Assembly: GCA_039096225.1 (NCBI GenBank) | Contig: JBBPEB010000002.1 | Location: 62,001-126,000 of the forward strand | Direction of reading: 5' to 3' | DNA length: 64,000 bases | Source: Blastocystis sp. Blastoise | Lineage: Eukaryota > Protista > Bigyra: Opalinata | In this document: in pieces, positions 1 through 23,742 of the stretch | Numbering within the stretch: position 1 is the first letter of the stretch | Layout of the letters: each line of letters begins with the position of its first letter | Position numbers and translations under genes: made by a program | Notes under the pieces: generated by a model | Seen by the model: the letters and a program-made list of their open reading frames with translations, nothing else | Told to the model about the DNA's origin: nothing | Databases searched by the model: none

Positions 1-392
1 ATAAAAATGTATGTATAGTGATCAATAAATAATATAAAAAGTCATGATAATCATAAAAAAATTTATATAAAAAGAGTAAAGTGATCAAGGTATGTATTTA
101 TAGTGGGTGAAAGAAAAGCTGGTGGTGGTGTGGTCTTGTAAAAAGATGTACCCACCACCACGATTATAACGAGAGACTTTTGGAAACAAGGGTGACCGTT
201 ATGGAAATAGGATGCGTCATCGTGAATTGTCCAATCAAATTGCTTAAAAATGTAAAAATGAGGGATTTTGGAACACAAAAACATAATTATATTGGGGAAA
301 CTGGGGAAACTAATTGTGTTCCAGTGGTTTTAGGTGGCGGGATGTATATCAATTTTCTAGAATATTCTAGAACATTCTCGAAACTTCTAGAA
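1..392 (+). repeat. Left terminal inverted repeat (partial)
   Basis: Reverse complement of 23705-24096 (position 1 pairs with 24096). The only differences I spotted are 3 clustered mismatches near 284-294. Confidence 0.95.
355..392. promoter_or_regulatory. Heat-shock-element-like array, 8 alternating nTTCn/nGAAn units
   Basis: TTCtaGAAtaTTCtaGAAcaTTCtcGAAacTTCtaGAA, 45 bp upstream of the ATG at 438. Confidence 0.75.
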
Positions 393-437
393 TAATAAAT
401 TGTATTATGCGTTTTTTCTATTTTTATACTATTTATT

Positions 438-608
438 ATGGATTCTCCAAAGCAATTTGCTCCAGATTATAAAGAAGGTACTTGGAAACCTTATGGAAAT
501 TTTGAAGTTGATGAATTAAGTGATAGTGATTCTGATATGGACAGTTTTCATACTGTAAGTGAAGATGATGAATATGAAGATTATATCAAGAATTTTATTG
601 ATTTTTAA
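438..608 (+). CDS. Small acidic protein, 56 aa (not in ORF track)
   Basis: ATG438-TAA608 encodes MDSPKQFAPDYKEGTWKPYGNFEVDELSDSDSDMDSFHTVSEDDEYEDYIKNFIDF. HSE-like array upstream, TGTTTAGTT 3' motif at ~637. Confidence 0.65.
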   Translation: MDSPKQFAPDYKEGTWKPYGNFEVDELSDSDSDMDSFHTVSEDDEYEDYIKNFIDF

Positions 609-676
609 ATTAATTTTTATAAATAACAAAACAAATTGTTTAGTTTAAAAATAATAATAAATAAAATAAATTAAAA

Positions 677-2278
677 TTAACTAATGTTTCTGCGTTTATT
701 TCTAAATTTCTTAGGTGTTGTAGTACGTCTTTTTCTACGTAATCCATGTCCTGCAATATAAAATTTATTTCCTTCTCCATCATCACATGACTCAAAATCA
801 TCATCATCATCATCATCTTTATTTTTATTATTTTTATTTTCAAGAGTAACATTTGATACTGGATTGGGAATCGGGGCTACCGGTGTAATGTTTGGAGAGA
901 AATTGTTTTTGACTACTTGGGACATTGGAATGGTGACAGGTAAAGGAGCAGTAGGATCGTTCATACGAGGAATTAAATCTATTGGTCTTGATTCATTTAT
1001 ATCAATATTATGAATATTTTCTAATGTTACAGGGGGACTTGGTGAAGGAATTAAAATATTATCATCATTATTATCGCCTAAAGGGAAGATTGGTGAAGGA
1101 GTAATATCTTCATTTAAATGAGGGATTGGTGAAGGACTTGGAACATCACCAATATCTATTTCTAATGGATTCTCATCTTGTAATAATTGTTGTTCTTCAG
1201 GACGTTTACCAAAATAATAATCAGAGAAACTATTAAATGTATCTTTAATATACGAACCTATTTTATTTGCACCATCAACCAATTTATTTGCTGTTTTTTT
1301 AGCAACATTAACAACAGGTTTTGCTGTATTTGTTACAGTATTAACAACTTTTTTAACAAGTGTTGGATCTGCTGCATATCTAATATAATCTTCATGGAAT
1401 GTTGGCGTTATTTTGTTTAGATAATCACGTCTTGCAAGAACTTCACTAACTGAATCTTTATTAGAAAAATGGGCTTCAGGATAATAAAGATCAGCTAATT
1501 CTTTATTCTTTTTCTTAGCTTCATTATTATTAGATATTTTCCAATTATCATACAAATTATTTCTATCACTCACAATTTTTCCTTTAATATCGTTAAATCC
1601 TTCTTGTGGATCAATATTAATATCTTTCCACCATTTCTTAAGATCTTTAAATTTATCTGCACCATAATCAACTGCACTACTTATTCCATGAGTGATATTA
1701 TGAATGCCTCCAGTTAAATTATTAGCAACACTATATACATCACCAACAACACCAAAAACATTTCCGAATAAATTACCTCCTCTTGAATATAAATATCCTT
1801 CGCGATCTCTTCTAGTAAAATCAATAGCTTTATCAATTGTACGAGGATTTAATAATCTTGAATATTTAGCATAATCAGGCATATGATGCTGTTTCATATA
1901 AGGTAAGACATAATCATGAGCATAAATGAGTTTTCTTGTGAAATTCCTTGGAATTCTACCATCAGGTAACAACCCAGATCCTTCATCTATTGGTTCAGTT
2001 TCTTCTGATTCCTCTAATGAACTTTGTATAACATCTTGTCTAGTTTCTGATAAATATGAATAGAATGGATTTGACATTGCTCTATTAACCATATTACTTT
2101 CTATTCGCTTAACAGCAGCTAAAGAATTAGGAGCAATAGAATAATTAATTGGATGACGTTCTTCTCCATCAGGAATAGATCCTGGAACAATATAATTTCG
2201 ATATTCATGACCAGTAGCACGATGATTTACGCCTACTAATCCTTTATTTGAAACATTTAAACGAGCACTTTGTATCAT
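677..2278 (-). CDS. Putative virion core/membrane-active protein
   Basis: 533 aa ORF. GG/GxG motifs (EGSGL, RGGNLFGNVFGVVG, AGHGL), amphipathic segments, Pro-rich linker, acidic run, basic C-terminal tail. Confidence 0.55.
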   Translation of the reverse strand: MIQSARLNVSNKGLVGVNHRATGHEYRNYIVPGSIPDGEERHPINYSIAPNSLAAVKRIESNMVNRAMSNPFYSYLSETRQDVIQSSLEESEETEPIDEGSGLLPDGRIPRNFTRKLIYAHDYVLPYMKQHHMPDYAKYSRLLNPRTIDKAIDFTRRDREGYLYSRGGNLFGNVFGVVGDVYSVANNLTGGIHNITHGISSAVDYGADKFKDLKKWWKDINIDPQEGFNDIKGKIVSDRNNLYDNWKISNNNEAKKKNKELADLYYPEAHFSNKDSVSEVLARRDYLNKITPTFHEDYIRYAADPTLVKKVVNTVTNTAKPVVNVAKKTANKLVDGANKIGSYIKDTFNSFSDYYFGKRPEEQQLLQDENPLEIDIGDVPSPSPIPHLNEDITPSPIFPLGDNNDDNILIPSPSPPVTLENIHNIDINESRPIDLIPRMNDPTAPLPVTIPMSQVVKNNFSPNITPVAPIPNPVSNVTLENKNNKNKDDDDDDDFESCDDGEGNKFYIAGHGLRRKRRTTTPKKFRNKRRNIS

Positions 2279-2390
2279 TTTATAAAATAATTATATTTTT
2301 TAAACAAAACAAAATAAAATATTGTATAATAAATTATTAATTACAAGATAATATATAAGAAATATAGATATATAATGTAAGGTATGCTAG

Positions 2391-3197
2391 TTATTTATTT
2401 TTTAAATAATCATCAAGAGGAATTGCTTCTCCATCTACATCAATATATACTGTATTCTTAGTATATATTAATCTCTTATCACCAAAAGCATCACTATTAG
2501 TACAATTTAGTAATCCTGATTTAATATAATAATCGAATTCAAATTCACCATAAGACGCTTTCTTGTACTTATTTTTGTTTTTATCTTTGTATACTTTATT
2601 AGCTACCTTGAAATCTCTCACTGGTTGTGTGGGTGTTTCAGTTTCTTTTTCAGTTTCAGGTTTCGTTTCAGGTTTAGTTTCAGGTTTAGTTTCAGGTTCT
2701 TTAGATGGTTTCTTTTCGGGTTCAGGTTTAGGTTCTGGTTTGGGTTGTTCTTCAGTGAAATTAGAATTCATGGATTCTGGTTGTGGTTTCACTGTATAGT
2801 CTTCATTAGGATTTCTTACAGTATGAATAAGTTTTTCATATTGATAGTTATTAGGATTACTAGCATCATACCATATCTTACTTGTAGTAGGAATACCATA
2901 ATTCGTTTGCCATTGAGATAACATTGATGTATATCTATTTGTATCACCATTAGCTTTAGCTGAATTCATAGTAGCTATAAACATATCTTCAGGTGATTGA
3001 CCATGATTTCTTAATGCTTGAACTGCCATTGAACTATACATAGATCCTTGTGCATTAGGATCATGTGCTAATGGTTGTACAGGTTGTTCATCTTGACAAA
3101 TATATGAATTGGGTAACCATGGATCCCAAGATTGTTTTTTCTGATTTCTTGATAAAATATCATAGAGAGTTACACTATCTCCTAAATTACTTTGCAT
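2391..3197 (-). CDS. Hypothetical viral protein with KPE(T/P) repeat linker
   Basis: 268 aa ORF in the structural gene cluster, followed by the 3' motif at 2303-2312. Confidence 0.7.
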   Translation of the reverse strand: MQSNLGDSVTLYDILSRNQKKQSWDPWLPNSYICQDEQPVQPLAHDPNAQGSMYSSMAVQALRNHGQSPEDMFIATMNSAKANGDTNRYTSMLSQWQTNYGIPTTSKIWYDASNPNNYQYEKLIHTVRNPNEDYTVKPQPESMNSNFTEEQPKPEPKPEPEKKPSKEPETKPETKPETKPETEKETETPTQPVRDFKVANKVYKDKNKNKYKKASYGEFEFDYYIKSGLLNCTNSDAFGDKRLIYTKNTVYIDVDGEAIPLDDYLKNK

Positions 3198-3273
3198 TAT
3201 TTATTGTATTAATTTAAAAATAATTATATAACAAAACAAATAATTAATTATGAAATAATAAAAGTTAAAATAA

Positions 3274-4311: not shown

Positions 4312-4364
4312 AACAAAACAATAAAATAATTATGGTTTATTTAACAAATTAAAATATAAAAAAA

Positions 4365-5402
4365 TTAATGAAAAGAAGGATAACCAGAATAATGTTTTTT
4401 ATTTAAATAAGGATTGAAAATGCGTCGTTGACTATCTTGTATGATTTGATCTTGTATGATTTGTAAGATGGATTCTTTAGGTTTATCTTTTTCATCTCGT
4501 TCAATACCTTTCAATGAGACTTCTTCTTCAACAGGTAAAAACTTCTTCATTTTCTTTTCATATGTAGATATATGTTCATTAGGACGTTTAATACCACTAC
4601 CTGATACTTCACCTTGTTCTTCTCGTTTCTCTTTTTCACTATCTTCTTCTGTCCATTTCCTTTTCTTTACCATCTTATAGACATTCTGTTTACTACCACA
4701 ATCAGGATTTGTCCATATCGTTAAATCATCACTACCTTGTTTTAACATAAAGAATTGATGTGGATCATTCATTAATTCTTCATCTGTAAGAATTTCATTT
4801 AAATTTGATGGCATAATCTTTAATTTATCTGGTAAGAATCCAGGATCACGTTTTAAGATTTGACTATTAATAAAGAAATGAGATACTTGACTTAATATAG
4901 ATTGATTGGTAACATCTGTATGACTTTGAAGACATATAATAGCATTCTGTTTATAATGACGACCTTTAGATAATATAGATACAATCAATTGTTTGGTTTG
5001 TCTAGATAATGGATAGATATCATCCAATACAATAAAATTATGTTCTGGTAATTTATATGTATTGACTAATTCATCAACAGTTTTAATCTTTTTAAATTTA
5101 TCATCTACAGAATCATACCATTTATAATCAATTCCAGCATGCTCACAAATATCTTGAAAGGATGTATAACATTCATTCTTATTGGATGCATCAGGACAAA
5201 TTACTGTGACTTGTTTATATTTATTTTTAAGATCCATAGAACATAAGAGGTTCACAGTTAAGAAAGATTTACCTGAGAATGTTCTTGCAATAATCAATAT
5301 AAATTTTGATTCATATGTTTTATGATGTGATTTTCCATATTTGAATTCTAAGACTCCACATCCTTTACGTGTTTCTTTTAATGGATTTATTTTATTCACC
5401 AT
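4365..5402 (-). CDS. Genome packaging ATPase (FtsK-HerA / A32-like)
   Basis: Walker A ARTFSGKS, Walker B FIVLDD, arginine finger KGRHY, following strand ICLQ; adjacent to capsid genes. Confidence 0.9.
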   Translation of the reverse strand: MVNKINPLKETRKGCGVLEFKYGKSHHKTYESKFILIIARTFSGKSFLTVNLLCSMDLKNKYKQVTVICPDASNKNECYTSFQDICEHAGIDYKWYDSVDDKFKKIKTVDELVNTYKLPEHNFIVLDDIYPLSRQTKQLIVSILSKGRHYKQNAIICLQSHTDVTNQSILSQVSHFFINSQILKRDPGFLPDKLKIMPSNLNEILTDEELMNDPHQFFMLKQGSDDLTIWTNPDCGSKQNVYKMVKKRKWTEEDSEKEKREEQGEVSGSGIKRPNEHISTYEKKMKKFLPVEEEVSLKGIERDEKDKPKESILQIIQDQIIQDSQRRIFNPYLNKKHYSGYPSFH

Positions 5403-5471
5403 TTTTATATGATTTTAATCAACAAAACAAAAAATAATTAATGATAAGTTAAAGATAAATATATGATTTTA

Positions 5472-6239: not shown

Positions 6240-7463
6240 TTAATTGGTTGCACCATCTCTAACAAATTTAACAAATATAAAATGAGCATATAAAGTATAA
6301 GTACCACTAGTAATATTTGCACCATTATATTCAGTTAATAAGGAGATATTAACTTCACAACCACTACGAGTATTGACATCAACAACACTTGAAATAGGGA
6401 ATATATAAATAGGTTGTTCATACCACTTTTCACCGTTTAAAGGAGATTGAGGATGACTATTACATCTCCAAGTATTATAAAGCATAGCATTAGGAATAAT
6501 TTGTGATGGATTCGTTGTTTTATACGTAGTAGGGAAATCCGTCTTTGGTAAGATATTTTGACCACCAATTTGGAATTGACACATCTTCAATAATTCAGTC
6601 TTAATAGGAATCATACTCTTCTCTTGAGTTGTAAAATATAGCATACAGTAATCAGGTACGAAAACAACACTTCTATTGGATAAGAATTGTTGTGGAGTTG
6701 GTTTACCTGCTGTTGTGAATGTTTGTGAATAAACAGGTGTAGTAAATGCAGATATTTGACAATTATTAGGAATACATTTAATTAAAGCACGTGGATCATT
6801 ACCAAAATTAATATCATAAATTTGTTGAAGATGAATATAAACACGATCAAATGTTAATGCAGTGATTTTAGTCGTACCTGTAAATAGATTCTTTAAATAA
6901 TTTGTAACGAATTGCATCTTCAAAGATTTTACTTTAATAGCACAATCAAATGTACCAAGACCAGTAATAAGAGATAAAGGAATAATAACTTGAGCTTTAG
7001 TAGAACTTTGCATTCCAGAAATACTGCTTAAGGTTGTATTATATAAGCATTCTGTCATACTATACATAGATTTATCAATTTCATCTTTACTTAATTCTTT
7101 AATAGTAACAAATTTTCTTGCTTTACTGGATTCAATAGAAGATTCAGAATAATTAATAAGAATATCTTGACCCGTAGGAGATACAAACGTAAGATCTGTA
7201 GTAATTTTATCAATAATACTATAGATATTAGAATGTTGTACAACAGAACTAGTTGTAGCTGCATTTGTTGTAATATTGAAATTCAGTTCTAAGAATGAAT
7301 TGCTGAAATCAATAAAAGGACTATCCACTGAATTATATAAGAATTCAAATGGATAAGGTTGATTTAATAAATCTTGACTTGTAGAAACTAGAATAGGAAT
7401 TTGTACAGGTTTAATAGTTTGATTTGCCTTTGAAGGTAAGAATTGTCTTGGGAATCCTTCCAT
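6240..7463 (-). CDS. Major capsid protein (double jelly-roll), paralog 1
   Basis: 407 aa, beta-rich. FIDFSNSFLEL, IIPLSLI, VPDYCMLYF and PIYIFP resemble PLV/Polinton MCP strands; collinear with 7641..9113. Confidence 0.75.
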   Translation of the reverse strand: MEGFPRQFLPSKANQTIKPVQIPILVSTSQDLLNQPYPFEFLYNSVDSPFIDFSNSFLELNFNITTNAATTSSVVQHSNIYSIIDKITTDLTFVSPTGQDILINYSESSIESSKARKFVTIKELSKDEIDKSMYSMTECLYNTTLSSISGMQSSTKAQVIIPLSLITGLGTFDCAIKVKSLKMQFVTNYLKNLFTGTTKITALTFDRVYIHLQQIYDINFGNDPRALIKCIPNNCQISAFTTPVYSQTFTTAGKPTPQQFLSNRSVVFVPDYCMLYFTTQEKSMIPIKTELLKMCQFQIGGQNILPKTDFPTTYKTTNPSQIIPNAMLYNTWRCNSHPQSPLNGEKWYEQPIYIFPISSVVDVNTRSGCEVNISLLTEYNGANITSGTYTLYAHFIFVKFVRDGATN

Positions 7464-7640: not shown

Positions 7641-9113
7641 TTAAATATCACGTACACTACGTACAGCAATCATATGTAATGTATAAGGATGCTTCTCATT
7701 TAGTTCAGTATTAATATGTTTATAAATACCAGCATGAGAAGCAACGGCATAAGAAGCACCAGTGTCAGGTGTCCATATTTTAGTAGTTTCATTATATGTA
7801 CATGTATATCCATCAGGAACAGTAGATGAATCAGCATGACCATATTCAATATCATGAACATCTAGATTACAATCAAAATTCATTTCTATACCACTATCTG
7901 ATTGGATATTCATTAATGCTTTAGTTGGAATAATATAAATAGGATGTTTAATCCATTCATCATATTTAAGAATAGTTTCAGGATTTGAATTATCAGCCCA
8001 TAAACAATATAAATTTTTATTAGGACAAGATAAACTAGCAGTTTCTTCATTATTGAAGACATGACCTTTAGTAGTAAGATTATGATAATACATTTGAGTA
8101 GGGAATTCAGTTTGAGGGAACATTTGAACATCACCAATCAAACAACTTTGATATTTAGGCCATACAGATGGACTAGCTATATTACTAATAGTTGTTGAAC
8201 TATAACCATTTGTAAACCAGTATAATATATATTCTGGTATAAATGGTAAAGCTCTATTGATATTGAAATGATCACTAGTTATTCTTGTATTTTGATAATC
8301 GACTTGAATACATGTAGGTATAGTTTTATATAATTCATTCGTTTGGAATTGAATATCTTTATAAGTCATTAAATTCATAGTAGCTGATTCCAATTCAAAT
8401 GTCTTAAACCATTTTTCATCAGTTAGATGTAACCATTGTGTTGATAGATCTTTACCACCATTCTTGAAATAAATACTCATATTATTATCAATTAAGGATT
8501 CAATAGTACTAGTTCTAAATAACATATTGAAATGTTTAGTTAATATTAAAGAATCTCCATCAACACCTAAACCACTAATAAGATATAAAGGAATAGCAAT
8601 ATGAATAGATTCATTTGGATGTGCACGTATATAACGAATAGAATTCAATTCATAAGTATCTGCAGATAAATCTTCACCATACATAGATTTTTCTAAATCA
8701 TTCTTACTGATATCTTTTAATAAAATCATTTTACGACCACGTGAAGCATGTGAACAGTTTTCTTCATATTTCAAAGCACGATCAGATCCATCAGGTAATG
8801 TATAAACCATTTCAACATCAGTGGAATCAATAATAGAATAAATATTTGCTTTTTGAACTAATTGATCCAAGAAATATTGACATAATTGATCATAGGTGAA
8901 ACTAACAGAAGTACCTGTTTCATCTAAATAAACAGAAACTGGTCCAGCTTTATCTGTGACAGTTGCCTTGACAGTAAGATCCAAATAGGATTGATTGAAA
9001 TTGATATAAGTGTTATCCACATTAGTCCAATGATATTGAAAGATATAAGGACTTGATAGAATATCAGTATCACTTTGAATAGGAATATTATCTTTAATTC
9101 TTAAGATTCTCAT
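7641..9113 (-). CDS. Major capsid protein (double jelly-roll), paralog 2
   Basis: 490 aa. YINFNQSYLDL, NIYSIID, IPLYLISGLG, IPEYILYWF and PIYIIP match paralog 1 block by block. Confidence 0.72.
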   Translation of the reverse strand: MRILRIKDNIPIQSDTDILSSPYIFQYHWTNVDNTYINFNQSYLDLTVKATVTDKAGPVSVYLDETGTSVSFTYDQLCQYFLDQLVQKANIYSIIDSTDVEMVYTLPDGSDRALKYEENCSHASRGRKMILLKDISKNDLEKSMYGEDLSADTYELNSIRYIRAHPNESIHIAIPLYLISGLGVDGDSLILTKHFNMLFRTSTIESLIDNNMSIYFKNGGKDLSTQWLHLTDEKWFKTFELESATMNLMTYKDIQFQTNELYKTIPTCIQVDYQNTRITSDHFNINRALPFIPEYILYWFTNGYSSTTISNIASPSVWPKYQSCLIGDVQMFPQTEFPTQMYYHNLTTKGHVFNNEETASLSCPNKNLYCLWADNSNPETILKYDEWIKHPIYIIPTKALMNIQSDSGIEMNFDCNLDVHDIEYGHADSSTVPDGYTCTYNETTKIWTPDTGASYAVASHAGIYKHINTELNEKHPYTLHMIAVRSVRDI

Positions 9114-12182: not shown

Positions 12183-13979
12183 ATGCAATCAACAGGTTAT
12201 TCAGATAAAGATTGTGAAGAATTCTTTACAAATTGTATAGATCAATTATTACATTGGAAGAAAATACAATTATCAACAAGTATAAATTGGAAGAAATGGA
12301 TAAAGACAATATGTAAGAAATTTCGTAATGAAGAACGAATTCAAATAGATGATATGGAAGAACCATTCTTTTGTGTAGAAGTGTTAACAGATCCATTTCA
12401 ATTTCAAAATGTTATGCAACATACACAAACAGAAGCTCCTGGACAACAAGGTGGATTATCCAATACTACTGTAGCTAATTATATGCAAATGATTACTTAT
12501 ATAATGAAGAATATATCTATTTGTACAGATGATGAAGATATCATTAATTATAAAGCATTTACTCCACAAAATATAAAGAAATGGGAACATTTATGGGGTT
12601 CTTTACAAATTGATGCTACTTATTCAAGACATTATGAAATCACTCAGAAAATTATTAATTGTGAAGCTGATTGGGGAGAAATCATTAATATCACCAAAAA
12701 GAATTATTTAGAAAATCCTAATGATTTATATTATGTGAATAGTTATTTATTAGTTTTAACTTATGATACATTATGTGCTCGTAATGATTATAATGATTGT
12801 GTAATCTATACTCGTGGTCAACAAATTCCTTTATCCTTAAGAAGAACAACCAATTATATTGATTTAAATACTTTGACTATTCATGTAAATGATACAAAGA
12901 ATCGATTTGAAATTGGTAAGAATGAATATCCTACTTATCAGTATTTATCAGAAGAATATTTAAATGTCTTAGCTAGATCCTTACGTTTATTTCCAAGACA
13001 TTATTTATTTGTTACTGAGAATGGTGGTAAAGTACGTGATTTGAAATTTGGTGATGAATATATAAAACCTCATTTAGGCTGGATTTATAAAACACAACAG
13101 AATAATACTTTAATTAATGGTTGTGATATTATAAGACATTTATTTGCTCAATATTATTATAGATTATCAAGAGAAGCACAATTCCAACATAATGATTCAG
13201 AACATGAATCTAAAGGTGTAGAACTCTTTGAAAATTCGATTATGAAGATGTTACATAGTCAATCAACACATATGGAAAATTATATATCTCCTTATTTATC
13301 TTCTCATTCAACTAAATTGCAAGATTTAGATAATAAAACAAGAACATTTCATATTGATATGAATAATATTACTTATACAAGAGAAATTAATCAATTGAAT
13401 AAATTATTATTTTTATGTAAACGATTTAATGATCGTATAGAACAATATGAAGAAGACTATGAAGATGTATTTGGTAAAGAGAATTTCAATATGAAATCAG
13501 AATCGATATTAAGTAGTCTAGAACAATATTCATCAGATAATGATACTATAATGATTACATTAAGATATTATAAAGATCTATTAAAGCATCATTATCCAGA
13601 TAAAACAGATTTAGAAAATGAATTACCTGTAGGATGTACATTAGAATCTGAAGAAGTTCCAGAGAATTCTAGAGATCGTTATAATCGTTTTATACGTAAT
13701 AAACAATTATTACCTGATCATTTACATAATAATACAACAGATTCAGAATTAACGAATACTCAAGCATCTCTTATGCAACAAAATACTCAAGATGAAAACT
13801 CTACACCTATAGTTATGAATAATTCAGATACTTATGCATTACGTAGTCTTTCTACTATGCCTCCTTTAGAGCCTATTCATCGGGGTCATGGTTTATTGAA
13901 AAAACATAAAGGTAATGCATTCTTTAAAGTCAAAGTCCCTAAAAAGCATTTTCATGGAATTCAATTTAAATTTTATTAA
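12183..13979 (+). CDS. Tyrosine recombinase 1 with long C-terminal extension
   Basis: Catalytic pattern R (LCARNDY), K (NDTKN), xxxR (DIIRHLF), H and Y (MLHSQSTHMENY); collinear with 22671..23606. Confidence 0.75.
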   Translation: MQSTGYSDKDCEEFFTNCIDQLLHWKKIQLSTSINWKKWIKTICKKFRNEERIQIDDMEEPFFCVEVLTDPFQFQNVMQHTQTEAPGQQGGLSNTTVANYMQMITYIMKNISICTDDEDIINYKAFTPQNIKKWEHLWGSLQIDATYSRHYEITQKIINCEADWGEIINITKKNYLENPNDLYYVNSYLLVLTYDTLCARNDYNDCVIYTRGQQIPLSLRRTTNYIDLNTLTIHVNDTKNRFEIGKNEYPTYQYLSEEYLNVLARSLRLFPRHYLFVTENGGKVRDLKFGDEYIKPHLGWIYKTQQNNTLINGCDIIRHLFAQYYYRLSREAQFQHNDSEHESKGVELFENSIMKMLHSQSTHMENYISPYLSSHSTKLQDLDNKTRTFHIDMNNITYTREINQLNKLLFLCKRFNDRIEQYEEDYEDVFGKENFNMKSESILSSLEQYSSDNDTIMITLRYYKDLLKHHYPDKTDLENELPVGCTLESEEVPENSRDRYNRFIRNKQLLPDHLHNNTTDSELTNTQASLMQQNTQDENSTPIVMNNSDTYALRSLSTMPPLEPIHRGHGLLKKHKGNAFFKVKVPKKHFHGIQFKFY

Positions 13980-14023: not shown

Positions 14024-17000
14024 TTAATTTGGTATAGCATATAAAGTATTATCTATTAAAATTCGTTTTGTTGATGACGTATTATGATATTGATCTTCAC
14101 TATAAACAATTTCTTCTTTCTTAGATAAACAATTGGATAAACAGAATAAATCTGTATCCACACATTCATTATAAGTATTATCAATCATTAAACCACAAAT
14201 ACCAATAGCATTCCCCCCCTTATAGAAATTTGAAGTATGTTTTCTATGAATATTCACAATATCTATAGAATTAAATGTATCTTTACTACTTAAACAACCA
14301 AATAAAGCATTTGTAAATTTATCTAAATCTTTCTTAATCGTAAATTGATTATTATTATTCACTTTCTTATAACTATTAAAAATATCTTCAATAGTAACTA
14401 CATTCAAATAATAAGGATCTATAGTAATATGGTTATCAACAAAAGATTTCAAATCATATCCTTCTGTACTACGATCAAAGAATCGTTTCTTACATTCACT
14501 TATATGATATTCATTATCTAATTCATGCATATCTAATTGCATACTAGAATAGAAATAATTACTTACTAGATAACTAAAGATAATTGAACGATTCTGATAG
14601 AATTTATCGGATAGAGTATAATCCATTTCATAATGATTTGGTTTCAATCTCTTTTCTACTGTCTGTTTACGTTTAGGTAAATTATGATCTACATAATCTT
14701 CATATAAATTAGCATTACCAGGAGGGAAATAACGACAACATGATGGTAAGAAACAGACTCTTCTTTCAATAGGACCAGCATTCACAGCAGTAGGTTGGAT
14801 ATTACTTGTCATAAATAAAGTACCCGTGAAATGAACTTTTGTAAATATATTACTGAATAATTTACGAGCACTAGCACCTTCTTTCTTTTCTGCTATTTCT
14901 TTAAAGACTTTAGAAGAGAATGGATTGAATGTTTTCTTTCTACCAGTAACATCTTCTTCTATTAATTCATTCATATAATACATAGTCTTATTAGACATAT
15001 CTACAATCTTAGGAGCTATAGATGTTTCTTCTAAATTATCTGGATTTACTATAATACATTGATTACTACCTACAATACGAGAAATTAAATCAGTTGTTAT
15101 TGTTTTACCATTACTACCTGTACTACCATATAATATATAAGAAACTGTTTTCTGAGTATTGACATAGAAAGCAGTGGTTAAGATACGTAACATAATACTT
15201 TCATATTTCTTATCGAATTCACAATATCTTGCAATATGTTGTTCAAATAATTGGATAATATCTTTCTGTTCATTATTAATATTCCAACTTACATTAAATT
15301 CAGTATCAATTAATAAATCTTCAAACACCATATCTTCTTTATGATATGGTTGGATATAATATTGTCTAGGATCTTCTTCTGTAGATTCTTTTGGATATAA
15401 ATAACCAAGTTGTGTATAGATAACACGTTCTTTATGAACCATATACGTATCTAAATATTCTTTATAAGATTTACCATAAGTCTTCAAATAACGATTCAAC
15501 CATTCTTTATAATGATATTCATTAGTAACAGAAGCAGACATTATTTTATCAACTATTTTTTGATGTTGTTCATTCTCTTTGGAATATAATCTTGATAATT
15601 TGAATTTCTCTACAATTGATTTCATAAATGTAGTTATTTTGGTTTCAAAGAAATTAATATCATAATTATTCTTACAACGTCTTAAGATATTATATTCATC
15701 AAATGTATATAAGATAAAATTATCTTTATCTAATATAATAGAAACAATTTCATTAAATTCTAATAATTGAAATAACATAACTAATGTTTGTGAATCTACA
15801 AGATTAAAGGATTGAATACATTCTAAAATAGACATAAATATGAAATCATTATCATCATCTTTATTAAATAATTTATTATCCATTAATATCTTCAAAATAT
15901 AATTATTCGATAAATGAGTAGGATCAACTTGTATATGATTCCATGTAGATTCAATTACATCATCACTTCGATCATGACCATAACGTAATGAATAATTTTT
16001 AAATAATTCTAATCCTCTTGTTGTATTACAAATCTGTTTTGCTGCACAACATAATTTATACCAAGTATTATGAGATTCAAAATAATTCATATCTTCAATA
16101 GAACCAATCAATAATAAATATCGTTCTAATAAAGCTTCTTTAGATGCTGTAGTATCCAATATAGTATCTGTAGAAATCAACATAGGAATATCTTTAATAT
16201 CTTGTATAGAACATAATATAGTACGTGAACAATTATTTAATCTTGCATAATAACGTTTATAACGTGAATATTGTTTTAATTTATAAAAAATAATAGGATT
16301 AATAATATCACTTATAATATCATCTTCATTCTTATAATTCAATAATGTTTTGAAATAATAATGTTCATCGATTTCATCATCTATTTTCTTCCATGTTTTA
16401 TTGGTATATTCTTCATATAATTTATAAGTAGATGGAGAATTATCTTTACTACAACCAAGAAACATACAACCATTATTCTTTCTGGGTTTACCAATAACAT
16501 TATAATCAATGAATTCTTTTATATCTAAATTATATGTTTTACATAAATCAACCAATTTGGTATTCAGAATCATACTATTATATAAGAAAAATAAATAATC
16601 ACCATTTACAAACCAATTTGTATATATATGAATTCCCCATGAATAATGTATTTCATTATGAACTGTCTTCTTATTCACTTCTTTCTTTGTATACAGAAGC
16701 GAAATAAATTCTTGATTATAATAATGAATACAATGATTACACATTTCTTCTATAAATTCATGAATAAAAGAATCTGTTAGAAAAGAAAAATCATTTGATA
16801 TTTGGTGATAATCTAAATCAAACCATAATCTTCTATAATTAGTTGATGTATTACAAGGAGTACAATCAATATAATGTAATAATTCTTTTGGATTTTGGTA
16901 ATTAGTAAATAGACTTTTATAAAATGGTAATGGATTTGGTATAATAATTTCACTATGATTATCTTTTGAATTATCATGATTAAAGGAACCAAAAGTATAA

Positions 17001-17026
17001 ACAAAATGAATTTGTGAATTTTCCAT
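14024..17026 (-). CDS. AEP primase - PriCT-2 - superfamily 3 helicase (D5-like)
   Basis: AEP motifs WFDLD, WGIHIY, FIDYNV; PriCT-2-like TWYKLCCAAK...GLELF; SF3 Walker A GSTGSNGKT, Walker B YMNE, motif C MTSN, arginine finger IERR. First ATG at 17026 (the track start is TTG). Confidence 0.88.
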   Translation of the reverse strand: MENSQIHFVYTFGSFNHDNSKDNHSEIIIPNPLPFYKSLFTNYQNPKELLHYIDCTPCNTSTNYRRLWFDLDYHQISNDFSFLTDSFIHEFIEEMCNHCIHYYNQEFISLLYTKKEVNKKTVHNEIHYSWGIHIYTNWFVNGDYLFFLYNSMILNTKLVDLCKTYNLDIKEFIDYNVIGKPRKNNGCMFLGCSKDNSPSTYKLYEEYTNKTWKKIDDEIDEHYYFKTLLNYKNEDDIISDIINPIIFYKLKQYSRYKRYYARLNNCSRTILCSIQDIKDIPMLISTDTILDTTASKEALLERYLLLIGSIEDMNYFESHNTWYKLCCAAKQICNTTRGLELFKNYSLRYGHDRSDDVIESTWNHIQVDPTHLSNNYILKILMDNKLFNKDDDNDFIFMSILECIQSFNLVDSQTLVMLFQLLEFNEIVSIILDKDNFILYTFDEYNILRRCKNNYDINFFETKITTFMKSIVEKFKLSRLYSKENEQHQKIVDKIMSASVTNEYHYKEWLNRYLKTYGKSYKEYLDTYMVHKERVIYTQLGYLYPKESTEEDPRQYYIQPYHKEDMVFEDLLIDTEFNVSWNINNEQKDIIQLFEQHIARYCEFDKKYESIMLRILTTAFYVNTQKTVSYILYGSTGSNGKTITTDLISRIVGSNQCIIVNPDNLEETSIAPKIVDMSNKTMYYMNELIEEDVTGRKKTFNPFSSKVFKEIAEKKEGASARKLFSNIFTKVHFTGTLFMTSNIQPTAVNAGPIERRVCFLPSCCRYFPPGNANLYEDYVDHNLPKRKQTVEKRLKPNHYEMDYTLSDKFYQNRSIIFSYLVSNYFYSSMQLDMHELDNEYHISECKKRFFDRSTEGYDLKSFVDNHITIDPYYLNVVTIEDIFNSYKKVNNNNQFTIKKDLDKFTNALFGCLSSKDTFNSIDIVNIHRKHTSNFYKGGNAIGICGLMIDNTYNECVDTDLFCLSNCLSKKEEIVYSEDQYHNTSSTKRILIDNTLYAIPN

Positions 17027-17112: not shown

Positions 17113-17232
17113 GAAGCTTCTAGAACATTCAAGAACATTCTAGAACATTCTATAATAGTAAATATTACTTTATATTTTTAAATGTTCTAGAACCTTCGAG
17201 AACATTCTAGAACCTTCTAGAACCTTCTAGAA
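17113..17232. promoter_or_regulatory. Two HSE-like arrays (8 units at 17113-17150; 10 units at 17185-17232)
   Basis: GAAgcTTCtaGAAcaTTCaaGAAcaTTCtaGAAcaTTC and TTCtaGAAccTTCgaGAAcaTTCtaGAAccTTCtaGAAccTTCtaGAA, upstream of the primase-helicase. Confidence 0.78.
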
Positions 17233-17342: not shown

Positions 17343-17966
17343 TTAAATTTCAATTGGTTCTTGACTATTAATATATGTACATGAATGAGGCCATCCATTC
17401 TTATCATATAAAATACCATCCCAGAAATACATTTGTTTTGAAGGATCTCTTTTAATCTTGTTAATACTCTTAGCATGAACAACTTCATAAGTATAAACTT
17501 TACCTTTTTCATCATAAAGAAATCCATCTTCCATATGGAATTTCATAATATCAAAATCATCATCTTTAGAATTCGAATGTTCTTTAGAATCTTCAGAACA
17601 TAAAATAGTAGTTCTATCACTTTCTAAAAGATCTTCAGTATTAATAATATCTTGAATATCTTGTTCTTCATTAAGTTGTTGAGTATAAATATCAGCAGCG
17701 AATTCTTCATAATCTTCAAGACCTTTAATAACCGCGTTTATACGTTTTAAAGCTGATCTATAGTTTTCGACTTCGAAAGAAGCAAGACGTTCTTTAGATT
17801 TTGCAATACCCAATAGATTCTTTTCTCTATTCAATTGAGACTGATGTAAATCAATATCACGAAGAACATTCTTATGAACTTCAACAGCCTTCTTAGAATT
17901 CTTAAGAAGTTCCATACGAACAGTTTGAAGACATTTACGGGAATCAGCAGAAAGATTAAATTGCAT
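17343..17966 (-). CDS. Hypothetical viral coiled-coil protein
   Basis: ORF with first ATG at 17966 (MQFNLS...), heptad-rich N-half; 3' motif at 17274-17283. Confidence 0.7.
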   Translation of the reverse strand: MQFNLSADSRKCLQTVRMELLKNSKKAVEVHKNVLRDIDLHQSQLNREKNLLGIAKSKERLASFEVENYRSALKRINAVIKGLEDYEEFAADIYTQQLNEEQDIQDIINTEDLLESDRTTILCSEDSKEHSNSKDDDFDIMKFHMEDGFLYDEKGKVYTYEVVHAKSINKIKRDPSKQMYFWDGILYDKNGWPHSCTYINSQEPIEI

Positions 17967-18077
17967 TATAATCGCGAATATCGTTACAGAGAGAAAATTT
18001 GTATTTATCAAAATGAAATAAATAATACATTTAAATGGAATATTAAATATTCTAGGAGACAGTGTAGAATCTCTATG

Positions 18078-18095
18078 GAATGTTCTAGAAGGTTC
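18078..18095. promoter_or_regulatory. HSE-like array (4 units) in a divergent promoter region that also has three ATTGG (CCAAT) boxes
   Basis: GAAtgTTCtaGAAggTTC; ATTGG at ~18101, ~18174 and ~18244. Confidence 0.55.
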
Positions 18096-18364
18096 ATTTG
18101 ATTGGCTAATTTTGTCGACTTAGCATTTTTTATTTGTGTTTCAATGACGAGTATAGTTGGCATCTGTAATCTGATTGGATAAAAAAATTAGTAAAACACA
18201 ATTAGACGATGACGACGATGTGTCATACGAAATAAGTTATTTTATTGGCTTATTTTCCAGCTGGAAGCAATAGGCTTTTGTTAGCAACTGAAATGAAGAA
18301 CTGTACACTAAAAATAGTATATTTAATATATTGTATAAAAATACTTTTGAAGGTTTAAATAATC

Positions 18365-18892: not shown

Positions 18893-19091
18893 TTATTTTT
18901 ATTTAATTAATTATTTTGTTTTGTTTATTTTTTTTTAAATTAATTACACAAAGTTTAAATGGAGAATAGAATAGTTTCAAATAGAATTCTTGAATGGTCT
19001 AATGGATCTATTAAAGAAATATGTAACCACAGTATCATGGTTCGATTCCGTTAAAATGTTTCCATTAGATTATTCAAGTGTTCTTTTTTTT

Positions 19092-19139
19092 TTCTAGAAC
19101 CTTCTCGAACCTTCTAGAACCTTCTAGAACCTTCTCGAA
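19092..19139. promoter_or_regulatory. HSE-like array, 10 units
   Basis: TTCtaGAAccTTCtcGAAccTTCtaGAAccTTCtaGAAccTTCtcGAA, 77 bp upstream of ATG 19217. Confidence 0.78.
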
Positions 19140-19216
19140 AATTGATTCATTTGAAAAGAATATCGTAAAATATTAGTATTAAAATACTTATATTTTTACT
19201 AAATACTTAACTAAAA

Positions 19217-19810
19217 ATGTCTACAACTGAATTTAAAAAACCTACTATTCTTGATACTTCTAACTTTAATTTACAATGGGATGACACCAAAGAAAATGCT
19301 GTTCTTTTAAATAATAATCATCGTGTATGTATTTCTACTGATGCCACACCATGTTTATTTGGTTATATTGTTACACGTGATAAATGGACTTTATTAACAA
19401 TTGAAGATGATAATCAAGTATTCTTAACTGCTTATAAAGAACTTTATCGTAAATTATGTGAATTATGTCCTGATGGTGATATTGTTAATTTTGTACGTAT
19501 GGATAATGGTAAATATAAGATTACAATTAAAGTACCTATTAATGCATCGAAGAATGTTACTATTGATATCACTGATAAAAGAGATAAGAAGATTAATATC
19601 GGTAAAGATCCTAAGTTAACTTACGAAGAAATACGTGAAAAGTATATTCCACCAAATACGTTATGTAAAGTATTATTTACAATACATGGTATTCATCGTT
19701 ATAATAACAAGTATTATATTGGTTTATATGCTCGTTCTATTAAAGTCATCGATAAATCTACGAAGAATACTAATAGTAATGATACTATTATTGATTTAAC
19801 TAATTTATAA
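19217..19810 (+). CDS. Putative OB-fold single-stranded DNA-binding protein (NCLDV / T7 gp2.5-like)
   Basis: 197 aa. ISTDATPCLFG and IPPNTLCKVLFTIHGI...YYIGLYARSIKV resemble viral SSB strands; replication-module context. Confidence 0.55.
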   Translation: MSTTEFKKPTILDTSNFNLQWDDTKENAVLLNNNHRVCISTDATPCLFGYIVTRDKWTLLTIEDDNQVFLTAYKELYRKLCELCPDGDIVNFVRMDNGKYKITIKVPINASKNVTIDITDKRDKKINIGKDPKLTYEEIREKYIPPNTLCKVLFTIHGIHRYNNKYYIGLYARSIKVIDKSTKNTNSNDTIIDLTNL

Positions 19811-19884
19811 ATTTTTAATGTTAAATTTATTTTTTATTAATATATTTGTTTTGTTTATAAATAATTTTATAATTGAAATAAAAA

Positions 19885-21531
19885 ATGCAAAGTTGTATAT
19901 TAGGAATGCCAAGTCCTGGTACTTTTGGTATGAATTTAATTTCAACTGGAAAAGAATATAGGCGATATAATACACAACCATTACATAAAATGGATCAATA
20001 TAATCCAATATTTCATGAAATAGGTCCAAATTCATCTATGCCTGTGTCTACTTTAGAAAGTAAAGAAATACATGATGGTAAAGAAGATGATTATGTAGAT
20101 CGTTCTAAAACATTTGGTAAAGATGCTGTTCCACAAGGAAATGGTGCTTTAATTCGTGCTAGAGCAGCAGGTAAAGGTATAATGAAAGCAGCTGGTCCAG
20201 AAGAAGATAAAATAGATGGTGAAGATCGTCAATATAAAGTATTAAATCCATGTAAACCAAGACGTAAATCTGGTAGAGGAATTATTCCAAATAAATCAGA
20301 AATCAATAAATTAGAGAATAATCAAGGTTCTGGTATTGGTGATGCAATTAAAAATAAAGTAAAAGATATGTATCAACGAAATGTATTAGATATAAGAGAT
20401 GCTATTGTAGATAAAAAAGCTAATAGAAAAGCTCGTGATGCATTAGCTATTTTAGCTCAATATGTTGGTGACGGTCATCATGATCTTGATGATGAATTCA
20501 AAAGATTCTATGAACATAAAATAAAACGTGGTGGAAAAATTCCTATATCTGTTGCTTCAGCAATTATGAATGCAATTAAAAATAAGAAAATGATTATTAA
20601 TCCAAAATTAAGAAGAATGTTAAGACCCTCTATTATACCAAAATATATAGATTTAGATTCAGTTCAAAGTGGTGATGGTATATTAAGAGTAAAAAGAGGT
20701 GGTGGATTCTGGAGTGGATTAATGGATTATGCACCAGCTCTATTAGGTGTAGTTGATAAAGGTATGGATTCTTTTGCTAAAGGTAGAAAAGCTTATTATG
20801 ATACACATTTGGCACAACAATCAAGTGAATTAAATGATATGGAATTTGAAATGGAAAAATTAAAACGTCAACAAGCATTAAATGAAATGAAAAAGCAAAT
20901 AGGTTCTGGAAATACTATAAATAAAATGTTTGAAGGATATTATGATGTAGCTGATGAAATGCAAGATGCTCTTGATGAAGATGATAGACTACATCCACAA
21001 CCCGTTGTTCAACCTCCACCACCTCCACAACAACAAGTTGATCGACCTACTCAACCTCGACCTCCTCAACATTCGCAACCTCCTCAACCTTATAAACCTA
21101 TGCCTCGTGATGAACAAAGTTATCCTTATAAGATTTATGGTTTCCCTCAAAATGATAAAGAAAAAGTCGATAGAAAATGGAAAGAAGATGAAAGGGATAA
21201 ACGAATAGCTGCAAGAAGAGCTAAACGTAGAGGTTATGGTGGTCGAGTTAAATTAAGTAAAGCAGAATTCTTAGAACGAATGAGAAGAGGAAAAGAAGCT
21301 AAAAAGAAAAGAGGTGGTGATTTGAATCCATTAGTATCATTTTATACAGATTTTATAATACCTGCAGGAGTGGCACGAAAAAAACGTAAAATACAAGAGG
21401 CTGATTTAAAACAATTACAAATTATAAAACAGAAAATAGATAATAATGAAACATTAAATACAGGTGACGAATTGTTCTGGAAAAAAAAGAAGTATATGTT
21501 ATCAAAAAACTCAGGGGAGGGGATCTGGTAA
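19885..21531 (+). CDS. Basic core polyprotein-like precursor with many GxG/GG motifs
   Basis: 548 aa, K/R-rich, ~12 GxG/GG motifs, including RGGGFWSGLMDY followed by an amphipathic helix; directly upstream of the protease. Confidence 0.6.
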   Translation: MQSCILGMPSPGTFGMNLISTGKEYRRYNTQPLHKMDQYNPIFHEIGPNSSMPVSTLESKEIHDGKEDDYVDRSKTFGKDAVPQGNGALIRARAAGKGIMKAAGPEEDKIDGEDRQYKVLNPCKPRRKSGRGIIPNKSEINKLENNQGSGIGDAIKNKVKDMYQRNVLDIRDAIVDKKANRKARDALAILAQYVGDGHHDLDDEFKRFYEHKIKRGGKIPISVASAIMNAIKNKKMIINPKLRRMLRPSIIPKYIDLDSVQSGDGILRVKRGGGFWSGLMDYAPALLGVVDKGMDSFAKGRKAYYDTHLAQQSSELNDMEFEMEKLKRQQALNEMKKQIGSGNTINKMFEGYYDVADEMQDALDEDDRLHPQPVVQPPPPPQQQVDRPTQPRPPQHSQPPQPYKPMPRDEQSYPYKIYGFPQNDKEKVDRKWKEDERDKRIAARRAKRRGYGGRVKLSKAEFLERMRRGKEAKKKRGGDLNPLVSFYTDFIIPAGVARKKRKIQEADLKQLQIIKQKIDNNETLNTGDELFWKKKKYMLSKNSGEGIW

Positions 21532-21563
21532 AGAGTAAAGATGAAAAACTTATTCAAAATTCA

Positions 21564-22097
21564 ATGAATTGCGATAATCCTATTATATCTGATAAAACTC
21601 GTCATGTTACTCCTAGATCCCCTGATAATTTTAAACAAACTCTATCTCAATATTGTAATATACCCAATTCTTTAATATCTCAATTATATAATTATGCTTA
21701 TTTAAATAAACCTACTTCTTCTGTTGCTTGTGATCGTGCTGAAAATGTTATGAAACAATTAAATAAAATGAATTCTCAATCTTATAATTATTATAATAGT
21801 TATGATGATTTTGAACAAAATATAGATCAAGATCAAACTAAATTTAATATTATCTTTCATTAATGTCCTAGTGATCCTTATAATGGTCATTTTGAAGCTG
21901 TTATTTATAATGGTAATAAAAATATAGAACACTATTCATCATTAGGAAATAAACCTACTTTTTCAAAATCATTTATTCAAAATCATAATATTCAATATAA
22001 TCCTATTCAACACCAAAAAACTACAAGTAATGCAAATGGTTGCTTTTATTATTCTTTACTTTATTTACTTTCTAATGGAAATCTTATGCCTTGTTAA
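21564..22097 (+). pseudogene. Adenain/Ulp1-clan (CE) cysteine maturation protease interrupted by an in-frame TAA at 21861-21863
   Basis: The frame continues past the stop: NIIFH*CPSDPYNGHFEAV...IEHYSSLG...IQYNPIQHQKTTSNANGCFYY, matching the GHW...YFDSxG...Q...C pattern. Confidence 0.72.
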
Positions 22098-22101
22098 AAC
22101 C

Positions 22102-22124
22102 TTCTAGAACATTCTAGAACATTC
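22102..22124. promoter_or_regulatory. HSE-like array, 5 units
   Basis: TTCtaGAAcaTTCtaGAAcaTTC, upstream of ATG 22220. Confidence 0.65.
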
Positions 22125-22219
22125 ATTTTGAACTGGCTCTATTTGTAGAATCTTTAATTTATTATATTAGTGTTTTATATAATTAATTTGTTTTGTTTAA
22201 TCATTGGTTAATTTAAATA

Positions 22220-22597
22220 ATGAACAAGAAATATCTTAGTTATTCTTATTTTTGTCGTGTGATGAAGAATCTAAAAGAAGAAGGAATTAAATCCAAAAAG
22301 AATGAAATAGCGAATCTATTAGAACAATTTTTAAATAATAATAACAACAAGAATCTTAGTGATTTGCAATTGAGTTACTGTAGAAACATGTTACTTTATA
22401 TAGATGATCCTGTGATTCATCAACGTCTTGAAATGCTATTGGATAAACAATATATGAAGAATGAGAATCAATATCAAGAGGATAAGAATCTTATTCAACC
22501 CAATAATATGTTTATGCCAACTATGAAAAGTAATCAACAACAAAATCAATATCAAAATAATAATAATAATAATCTATCTTTCTTACCTTTTAATTAA
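22220..22597 (+). CDS. Hypothetical viral protein with Q/N-rich C-terminus
   Basis: 125 aa ORF, HSE-like array upstream, TTGTTTAGTT at 22621. Confidence 0.65.
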   Translation: MNKKYLSYSYFCRVMKNLKEEGIKSKKNEIANLLEQFLNNNNNKNLSDLQLSYCRNMLLYIDDPVIHQRLEMLLDKQYMKNENQYQEDKNLIQPNNMFMPTMKSNQQQNQYQNNNNNNLSFLPFN

Positions 22598-22670
22598 TTT
22601 TTATATCCTTTTATTACTAGTTGTTTAGTTATATTCAAAATTAAAGCAAAACAAACATGAAAACATAAAA

Positions 22671-23606
22671 TTATTCAATTAATTTTTTAAATAAATTATT
22701 ATTTTCTAAAGATACATAAGAATTAATATGTGTATAATCATTATGACATAAAGCAGAAGCAGAATTTTCTATATCTTGAAATGTATTGGTTGTAGTTGTA
22801 GCATATAATTTTCTTAATGCATTAATGGTCAATTTTGGATGGATTTGTTTTAAATGCTTATTCACAAACCAATCAAATGCTTTAGTAGTAAATCCAGTTC
22901 TTACAGAAGATTCAAATATAAATTTACGATTTGGATTTCTTTTTAAGAGTAATTCTAGATCTTCAATCAATTCTTTTGGTGCATCTAATTGAATTGTAGA
23001 GTATTTACCAGCAGTTTTATAATCATTTAATAGAATAGAACCAGTATGTTTCTCTTTATCATAAACAATATAATTCTTATGAATAGCTGGATCAATAGTA
23101 TCTTCTGGTGATAGAATGAATAATTGAGCATAATCAGCACGAGCAGGAGGAAGATAGGAGTAAAAATCTAATATTAATCGTAATGGGTTATAATTTTCTA
23201 ATTTATCGTGATATTCATGTAAATATGGAGTCGTAATACCATCTTTAATAAGATCTTGAATTAAAGTACGTTTCTTATTATCCAGATATTTTTCATACAT
23301 TGAATTGATAATCACATAAAATTCACACCATTTATTTAAAATACCTTCTTTATTTAATGAAGAAACATTACGTATAATAAATAAAATCAATTCACATAAC
23401 GATTTCATTGGACTAATTTTGATTTTACGTTCATTTACCATATAATCCATGAATGAATAAGGATTCTTTAAGAATTCTGAGAACTTTTTAAATGGTAATG
23501 GGAAAATATATAAATTGAAATAATTGGTTAAACGTTTTTTCCAAATATCAGAATAATTTGAATTCTGTATAACCAAAAGATACTTGTCATAATTTGTATT
23601 TTTCAT
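22671..23606 (-). CDS. Tyrosine recombinase 2 (PLV/virophage-type integrase)
   Basis: R (LPPARADY), K (LNDYKTAGKY), NxxR (INALRKLY), H and Y (LCHNDYTHINSY). First ATG at 23606; adjacent to the right TIR. Confidence 0.85.
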   Translation of the reverse strand: MKNTNYDKYLLVIQNSNYSDIWKKRLTNYFNLYIFPLPFKKFSEFLKNPYSFMDYMVNERKIKISPMKSLCELILFIIRNVSSLNKEGILNKWCEFYVIINSMYEKYLDNKKRTLIQDLIKDGITTPYLHEYHDKLENYNPLRLILDFYSYLPPARADYAQLFILSPEDTIDPAIHKNYIVYDKEKHTGSILLNDYKTAGKYSTIQLDAPKELIEDLELLLKRNPNRKFIFESSVRTGFTTKAFDWFVNKHLKQIHPKLTINALRKLYATTTTNTFQDIENSASALCHNDYTHINSYVSLENNNLFKKLIE

Positions 23607-23694
23607 TGATTTTCTCAAGTAGAATCTCTAAAACTTCTATTTTCAAAAGAATAATACATAAGAAAATCAAAATAAAATATCTAAGATTCTCATG

Positions 23695-23742
23695 TTCTAG
23701 AATGTTCTAGAAGTTTCGAGAATGTTCTAGAATATTCTAGAA
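23695..23742. promoter_or_regulatory. HSE-like array, 10 units, at the inner edge of the right TIR
   Basis: TTCtaGAAtgTTCtaGAAgtTTCgaGAAtgTTCtaGAAtaTTCtaGAA, ~90 bp upstream of the recombinase 2 ATG. Confidence 0.78.

Follow-up and report, generated by a model that had tools for sequence, protein, structure and literature searches.

We analyzed a stretch of 64,000 nucleotides from Blastocystis sp. Blastoise (contig JBBPEB010000002.1, positions 62,001 to 126,000; hereafter the window), the left part of which contains an element of approximately 24 kb that its gene content supports as an endogenous Polinton-like virus (PLV), or provirus. The element carries seven arrays in which GAA and TTC triplets alternate at a spacing of two bases, with 8, 8, 10, 4, 10, 5 and 10 units, respectively. 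These arrays have the form of heat-shock elements (HSEs) and are located upstream of non-structural genes. We consider it probable that they are binding sites of the host heat-shock factor (HSF) that drive the early genes of the provirus.

Arrays of phased GAA and TTC triplets

A preliminary description of this DNA had reported seven arrays, and a rescan of the window returned each of them with exactly the same coordinates and number of units:

355..392, HSE-type array of 8 units at the inner end of the left terminal inverted repeat (TIR), 45 bp before a 56-aa open reading frame (ORF)
17113..17150, HSE-type array of 8 units, 86 bp before the primase-helicase gene
17185..17232, HSE-type array of 10 units, 158 bp before the primase-helicase gene
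18078..18095, HSE-type array of 4 units, 111 bp before a 207-aa ORF and 269 bp before a 175-aa ORF
19092..19139, HSE-type array of 10 units, 77 bp before the gene of a protein resembling a single-stranded-DNA-binding protein (SSB)
22102..22124, HSE-type array of 5 units, 95 bp before a 125-aa ORF
23695..23742, HSE-type array of 10 units at the inner end of the right TIR, 88 bp before the gene of tyrosine recombinase (YR) 2

No further run of three or more phased units was found in the 64-kb window, in line with the earlier statement that the other 40 kb hold no comparable array. Since the arrays at 355-392 and 23695-23742 form the inner ends of the two TIRs, they represent one sequence, and the arrays at 17113 and 17185 share one gene; the seven arrays thus correspond to six promoters. 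Across these promoters the nearest array lies 45-111 bp before the ATG (the distance being measured to the start codon), and none of the six sites of the element is internal to a gene. The 4-unit array at 18078..18095 is located in a divergent promoter with CCAAT boxes.

The seven arrays far exceed the chance expectation. In Markov simulations of the element (300 each for orders 2 and 4), arrays of at least four units appeared at a rate of 0.017 (order 2) or 0.010 (order 4) per 24 kb, and arrays of at least six units did not appear. Variation within the arrays is unevenly placed. With the TIR array included a single time, hand counts show departures from an array's own majority at 12 of 82 spacer bases and at 0 of 105 internal core bases (Fisher p=3e-5), so the original observation of fixed GAA and TTC triplets with variable spacers is upheld by the numbers. 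No broken in-phase continuation of the arrays was seen in their flanks. Because the cores are fixed, the spacers vary and the flanks lack such continuations, the arrays are best understood as a selected protein-binding site. The core-fixed, spacer-variable shape is that of a protein-binding site and does not give the identity of the binding protein.

The same counts bear on the view that the arrays are neutral slippage repeats, or hairpins and cruciforms, which we regard as highly improbable. Such an origin agrees with the 10-bp period, pure 10-mer satellites of the same form do exist (locus L001), and four of five arrays fold better than their shuffled versions (z -3.4 to -6.0). However, the changes are confined to the spacers, the placement of the arrays is gene-specific, and the 40 kb of repeat-rich host DNA in the window contain none. 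A function as hairpins was rejected, since pairing is impossible for CC spacers and the 10-unit array at 19092 folds no better than shuffled sequences (z -1.6).

HSF prefers pentamers of the form AGAAN. This form accounts for 39 of the 47 pentamers in the arrays of the element versus 22 of 92 in 14 phage arrays that were found in the scans described below. In addition, the motif AAAATTGA, presumably a giant-virus early motif, has five occurrences in the element, two of them being TIR copies, and it abuts two types of array. An HSE is defined by three inverted nGAAn units (PMC9157408, PMC12366260), and the element has seven sites with 4-10 contiguous inverted pentamers of this kind, so the earlier assignment of the arrays to the HSE class agrees with the published definition.

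Gene content of the provirus

The following features of the element were annotated in the window:

1..392, left TIR, 99% complementary to 23705-24096, continuing beyond the left end of the window
438..608, plus strand, 56-aa acidic ORF, possible activator
4365..5402, minus strand, P-loop packaging-type ATPase (PHROG terminase-ATPase, E=1e-10)
6240..7463, minus strand, double-jelly-roll (DJR) major capsid protein (MCP) of 407 aa, from its predicted structure
7641..9113, minus strand, second capsid-protein paralogue of 490 aa (28% identity to the MCP, E=6e-39)
12183..13979, plus strand, tyrosine recombinase 1 of 598 aa, from an hhalign comparison with recombinase alignment A3
14024..17026, minus strand, primase-helicase of 1000 aa (PHROG DNA primase, E=2e-9; relatives at 39-45%)
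17343..17966, minus strand, 207-aa ORF downstream of an array, multi-copy
19217..19810, plus strand, likely SSB of 197 aa, from an Atlas feature match
21564..22097, plus strand, protease-like frame with an in-frame stop near the middle in this copy
22220..22597, plus strand, 125-aa ORF with a Q/N-rich tail, possible activator
22671..23606, minus strand, tyrosine recombinase 2 of 311 aa, downstream of the TIR array
23705..24096, right TIR; as the window truncates the left arm, the true outer end is not fixed

Members of the Polinton-like umbrella, including MELD viruses, are described as 15-30 kb long with TIRs, a primase-helicase or pPolB, and a YR or RVE integrase (PMC10120064). The element studied here is at least 24.1 kb long and has TIRs that differ at 3 bases (1-392 versus 23705-24096), a primase-helicase and two YRs; it also fits the Polinton-like umbrella of a second source (bioRxiv 10.64898/2026.06.19.733378). 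A Maverick/Polinton in the strict sense was ruled out, as none of the 18 element ORFs matched a DNA polymerase (protein-primed PolB) or an RVE integrase. Together with the capsid genes, these features sustain the first identification of the element as an endogenous PLV.

The 407-aa ORF is a DJR capsid protein as judged from its structural model, which is the capsid type of PLVs. The model reached a pLDDT of 74.9 with a 79-row alignment (31.7 without alignment), and the ORF has 87 related clusters. The best match of the model in PDB is the MCP of Sputnik (E=7e-11), and a MELD virus protein was matched in BFVD (E=1.5e-15). The P-loop ATPase adjoins the capsid genes, its class as a packaging ATPase being taken from the PHROG match and not from A32 directly. 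Two candidates for the minor capsid (penton) protein, of 223 aa and 811 aa, gave no profile match. For the protease-like frame, His and Gln/Cys motifs were recognized by eye, and Pfam and PDB give no support.

Among 50 aligned relatives of recombinase 2, 14 match Phage_integrase; in this alignment R156, K197 and R265 are invariant and H288 and Y296 nearly so, and the protein also matches the integrase 3nkh (E=0.0012). Recombinase 1 was connected to the recombinase 2 family through the alignment A3 (hhalign probability 96.4%, E=1.4e-9). The 197-aa ORF is likely an SSB, a lead of moderate strength. Its Atlas feature score to nucleocytovirus clusters is 0.95, with a recognition value under the threshold of the tool, and 10-18% of the members of these clusters have DUF5871/DUF2738; the assigned role is based on DUF2738, which we take to be an SSB. 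The remaining array-associated ORFs have no assigned family: the 207-aa ORF gave no usable Atlas match, the 125-aa ORF no Pfam or PHROG match, and the 56-aa ORF no Pfam match, its exact sequence being absent from the protein collection. A TGTTT(T)GT motif is present within 110 bases after the stop codon in 15 of 19 genes. We assume that it resembles the host poly(A) signal, and for this reason the motif fits transcription by host Pol II.

Distribution of arrays among genes

Arrays of 4-10 phased units are present within 250 bp upstream of six of the 19 genes, whereas the other 13 have at most 2 units. The first set comprises the genes of the primase-helicase, the likely SSB, recombinase 2 and the ORFs of 56, 125 and 207 aa; the second includes both capsid genes, the ATPase, the protease-like gene and recombinase 1. 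A clean sorting of the arrays onto non-structural genes is supported by this distribution. The preliminary description had confined the arrays to replication and recombinase genes, which is overstated, since three of the six targets are unassigned ORFs and the 598-aa recombinase has no array; the restriction to non-structural genes stands. It had also stated that no array precedes the ATPase, capsid, penton, protease and recombinase 1 genes. The ATPase, both capsid genes, the protease-like gene and recombinase 1 are bare indeed, while the protease and penton labels were unconfirmed by profile search.

Copies and relatives of the element, and the candidate host factor

The primase-helicase cluster has 19 members, with 99% identical proteins named Blastocystis by NCBI, and the recombinase 1 cluster has 21. 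The 15 primase-helicase members that were listed are located on contigs of 10 distinct sizes and are at least 99% alike at matching lengths. As near-identical copies are numerous, the element appears to have spread recently. A second, more diverged provirus family (P0007, P0154, P0156, P0157; 39-53% identity) has the same Blastocystis name. Further relatives, with 42-61% protein identity, were found across many ENA and Logan assemblies (contigs up to about 24-27 kb long), so that the family is widespread. A search of sequencing runs returned one match (X1, 0.35 of words, RNA only by guess), with no RNA run on record.

The preliminary description turned on an HSF encoded by the host, and this factor is found at the level of the genus: in a published supplementary table of domains, all eight Blastocystis columns have 2-3 copies per genome of IPR000232, the HSF-type DNA-binding domain (PMC12129017). 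Moreover, Blastocystis HSP70 is reported to be up-regulated at 41 C (PMC4151958). Both facts support the host HSF as the protein that binds the arrays.

Arrays of the same form in other genomes

A generic 6-unit TTCnnGAA pattern was found at 68 IMG/VR loci, and the 67 loci examined were reduced to 29 distinct arrays; with the phase CTTnnAAG as control, there were 35 loci and 27 distinct arrays. The shape of a TTCnnGAA array alone is not specific to HSF. Many of the generic arrays sit inside phage genes resembling replication initiators, three tested ones being assigned to Pfam Lin1244_N and the others recognized by eye. In L018, L022, L035, L043, L054, L064 and related loci, phased TTCnnGAA arrays within putative phage initiator genes are likely origin iterons. 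Among the controls, L095, L097, L103, L106, L107 and their relatives have CTTnnAAG arrays 300-400 bp upstream of a small phage gene, found repeatedly, which by eye resembles the terminase small subunit, and these arrays are possible packaging or terminal signals.

The narrower 5-unit arrays of the TTCTAGAA type were found at 12 IMG/VR loci, which correspond to 6 CRESS viruses, 4 giant-virus contigs and 2 phages. Eukaryotic viruses thus represent 10 of 12 loci versus 0 of 15 for a control of the same composition, all 15 control loci being phage-like by PHROG matches or shared ORFs (0 CRESS, 0 giant-virus). With duplicates grouped by hand, the proportions are 8/10 and 0/8 (p=0.001). In 6 of 7 CRESS genomes (the exception is L006) the array is located about 100-145 bp before Rep; two of the seven genomes are closely related, one came from the generic 6-unit scan and one from the metagenome scan. 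The CRESS genomes L008, L009, L011, L013, L016, L079 and L144 have two Rep types and HSE-type arrays of 5-6 units at about 100-145 bp from Rep, and L013 contains a TGACGTAA site just upstream. It is possible that CRESS viruses generally use the host HSF.

In metagenomes, the 6-unit TTCTAGAA form was found at no fewer than 119 loci. Seven of them look like one mariner group (four with transposase matches), some are next to retrotransposon genes, and at least four lie between bacterial-looking genes. The mariner-like loci (L122, L129, L132, L135, L177, L189, L237) have a 7-unit array followed by a TATA box a short distance upstream of the transposase start; the full-length locus of this group has both TATA box and transposase downstream of the array. 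The same pattern is rare in prokaryotes, with 8 occurrences in 596 Gb of genomes. Four of these eight come from a single Prevotellaceae genome (L254, L257, L258, L259), as a dispersed bacterial repeat of HSE shape. An 8-unit scan of IMG/VR gave 4 loci, one of them a phage and the other three being copies of the same 10-mer satellite. Within the recovered DNA, none of the loci checked had arrays at several separate promoters, except for a tandem CRESS contig, and tblastn with 19 element proteins gave no match among the 237 loci recovered.

These scans bear directly on the alternative that a protein encoded by the virus binds the arrays, which would be iterons or dispersed enhancer/origin repeats and would resemble HSEs only through a common one-turn palindromic design. 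Dispersed enhancer/origin repeats are known from baculoviruses as hrs. The phased arrays inside phage genes resembling replication initiators speak for such a model, as does the comparable diversity of the other phase; in addition, three array-driven ORFs have no assigned family and could bind DNA, and one array is located in the TIR. However, the six sites all lie 45-111 bp before a start codon and never within a gene, and the AGAAN bias of the element is missing from the phage arrays. Unrelated eukaryotic elements have this word upstream of their replication or transposase genes, a distribution that favours a host factor common to them. The small ORFs were searched, and a DNA-binding domain was detected in none of them. 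An iteron-type origin consists of one repeat cluster in or beside an initiator gene, and it was rejected here because the element has six dispersed promoter-proximal sites. Altogether, we consider a viral binding protein unlikely.

Proposed function of the arrays

Binding of the arrays by the host HSF, at promoters of early genes, is supported by their bimodal placement, the tight distance to the ATG, the fixed cores and the strong AGAAN bias. From the sequence, phase and position of the arrays, the gene identities, the copy number and the HSF domains of the genus, we infer the following scheme. Activated HSF trimers would load onto the six promoters, each array of 4-10 units holding one to three trimers. 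Stress would thereby induce three small proteins together with the primase-helicase, the likely SSB and one of the tyrosine recombinases. Excision would fall to recombinase 2, under control of the TIR array, and replication to the primase-helicase and SSB working with a host polymerase, the latter being proposed since the ORFs gave no DNA polymerase match. Expression of the array-free genes (capsid, ATPase and recombinase 1) would follow later by another route. The acidic 56-aa or the Q/N-rich 125-aa protein, both array-driven, may turn on these late genes, and recombinase 1 would then serve integration.

Host stress would thus likely wake the provirus. For the more specific claim that the HSF arrays act as a stress switch, by which heat or protein damage turns on the six genes together, we see the chances as evenly balanced. 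More tentatively, and with the odds leaning somewhat against it, the whole early programme (excision recombinase, primase-helicase, SSB and regulators) could constitute a host heat-shock regulon. The element would then represent a stress-induced 'prophage' in a protist of the gut, independent of any giant virus, and would exemplify a broader strategy by which small eukaryotic DNA viruses, including CRESS viruses, place HSE arrays upstream of replication genes.

Several observations weigh against this interpretation. Phage genes, without any HSF, hold generic TTCnnGAA arrays of 6-10 units, and the control phase is about as diverse (27 versus 29 distinct arrays). The TTCTAGAA arrays are present in five prokaryote genomes. 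The arrays of CRESS viruses are also near the origin, and they therefore support but do not prove a host factor, an iteron role being possible there. A positive control failed, as no Pfam match to a heat-shock protein was found beside the array at the 119 metagenome loci; this control covered the one or two longest frames on each side, with flanks of no more than 300 bp at 39 loci, and misses spliced genes. Five scans of viral, metagenome and prokaryote collections with a primase-helicase or capsid query did not find related element DNA. One of the two tyrosine recombinases, the 598-aa protein, has no array. Finally, HSFs can be constitutive (PMC12366260).

The last point leads to a second alternative, in which the arrays are indeed bound by the host HSF, but this factor activates constitutively or in response to infection; the arrays would then serve as an early promoter on cell entry and not as a stress switch for the integrated copy. 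This model shares all the evidence for HSF sites. It also draws on the CRESS genomes, which are of a non-integrating type and have such arrays before Rep, on HSFs that work without stress (PMC12366260), on the ability of several viruses themselves to activate HSF1 (PMC9157408), and on the presence of 2-3 HSFs in the genus. However, the long canonical HSEs of the mobile elements ONSEN and Helitron1_CE and of Macrostomum long terminal repeat (LTR) elements do give heat induction (PMC12801592), and constant expression of the recombinase from some 20 copies would presumably be costly. We hold a constitutive role to be improbable, and retain the host HSF acting on early promoters, with stress as its proposed trigger, as the preferred reading.

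Neighbouring DNA in the window

To the right of the element, a 14-kb element with 51-bp TIRs is present twice in nearly identical form (25822-39762 and 46970-60946), the copies flanking a host gene in inverted orientation. The 10 bases to the left of each copy are reverse complements of each other, as would result from an inversion or an alternative transposition. We take the start of these TIRs to resemble Mutator ends; in six frames tested, no transposase match was found. A spliced host DEAD-box helicase gene with a C-terminal KH-like domain and long AT-rich introns, PRP5/DDX46-like by eye, is located at about 40100-45594 on the plus strand. Also on the plus strand are an intact 426-aa DDE_3 (IS630/Tc1-type) transposase (61092-62372, E=5e-21) and a 158-aa ORF (63502-63978), the end of which resembles by eye the start of a tyrosine recombinase, with no significant Pfam match.

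Comparison with known systems

In the literature searched, we found no report of a set of six HSE promoters in a PLV, although the element may appear in supplementary tables outside the search, and no paper that combined the terms 'Polinton-like' and 'heat shock element'. The main text of the Blastocystis genome paper makes no mention of viral elements, and Blastocystis is named 20 times in one supplement of PMC10120064. The element described here would name a specific host trigger for the reactivation of an endogenous PLV. Stress-driven release of virus, if true, would matter for the population dynamics of the most common eukaryote of the gut, and the arrays would be ready-made inducible promoters for Blastocystis genetics.

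For Dictyostelium DIRS-1, the title of Zuker et al. 1984 reports a heat-shock promoter within the inverted terminal repeats. Like the Blastocystis provirus, DIRS-1 is a protist element with a tyrosine recombinase, and its heat-shock promoter matches in position the HSE-type array in the TIRs of the provirus; in contrast, it is a retrotransposon with one promoter and without a primase-helicase or capsid module. The likely origin iterons of phages in the TTCnnGAA phase share the 10-bp period, the fixed cores and the variable spacers with the arrays of the provirus, but form one cluster inside a coding region and have no AGAAN bias (22/92).

The capture of HSEs by mobile elements is established for ONSEN of Brassicaceae, Helitron1_CE of Caenorhabditis and the LTR retrotransposons of Macrostomum (PMC12801592, PMC6927752). 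These elements have canonical, sometimes tandem HSEs in their promoter and use the host HSF. They differ from the provirus in having one promoter, no DJR capsid and a proven induction, whereas in the provirus six promoters carry arrays, the structural genes are bare and induction is predicted. In Epstein-Barr virus (EBV), a functional HSE of the Qp promoter responds to HSF1 (reviewed in PMC9157408). EBV is likewise a latent double-stranded DNA virus in which an HSE and HSF1 express a replication-initiation protein, but this is a single HSE in a single herpesvirus promoter, as opposed to long arrays over an early gene set.

PLV and MELD viruses (PMC10120064; Tetraselmis S2x, bioRxiv 10.1101/2025.10.09.676808) resemble the element in their size of 15-30 kb, TIRs, DJR capsid, packaging ATPase, primase-helicase, YR and many endogenous copies. 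The element differs from them by its two YRs, two capsid paralogues and early promoters that look host-driven. Starrett et al. (PMC8502044) described a MELD virus from Blastocystis that differs in having PolB and an integrase. As described in the Tetraselmis source, reactivation of PLVs and mavirus depends on a giant virus and explicitly not on host stress (bioRxiv 10.1101/2025.10.09.676808). The wiring of mobile elements to HSF is already known, and in Blastocystis it apparently extends across the early genes of a Polinton-like provirus present in many copies.

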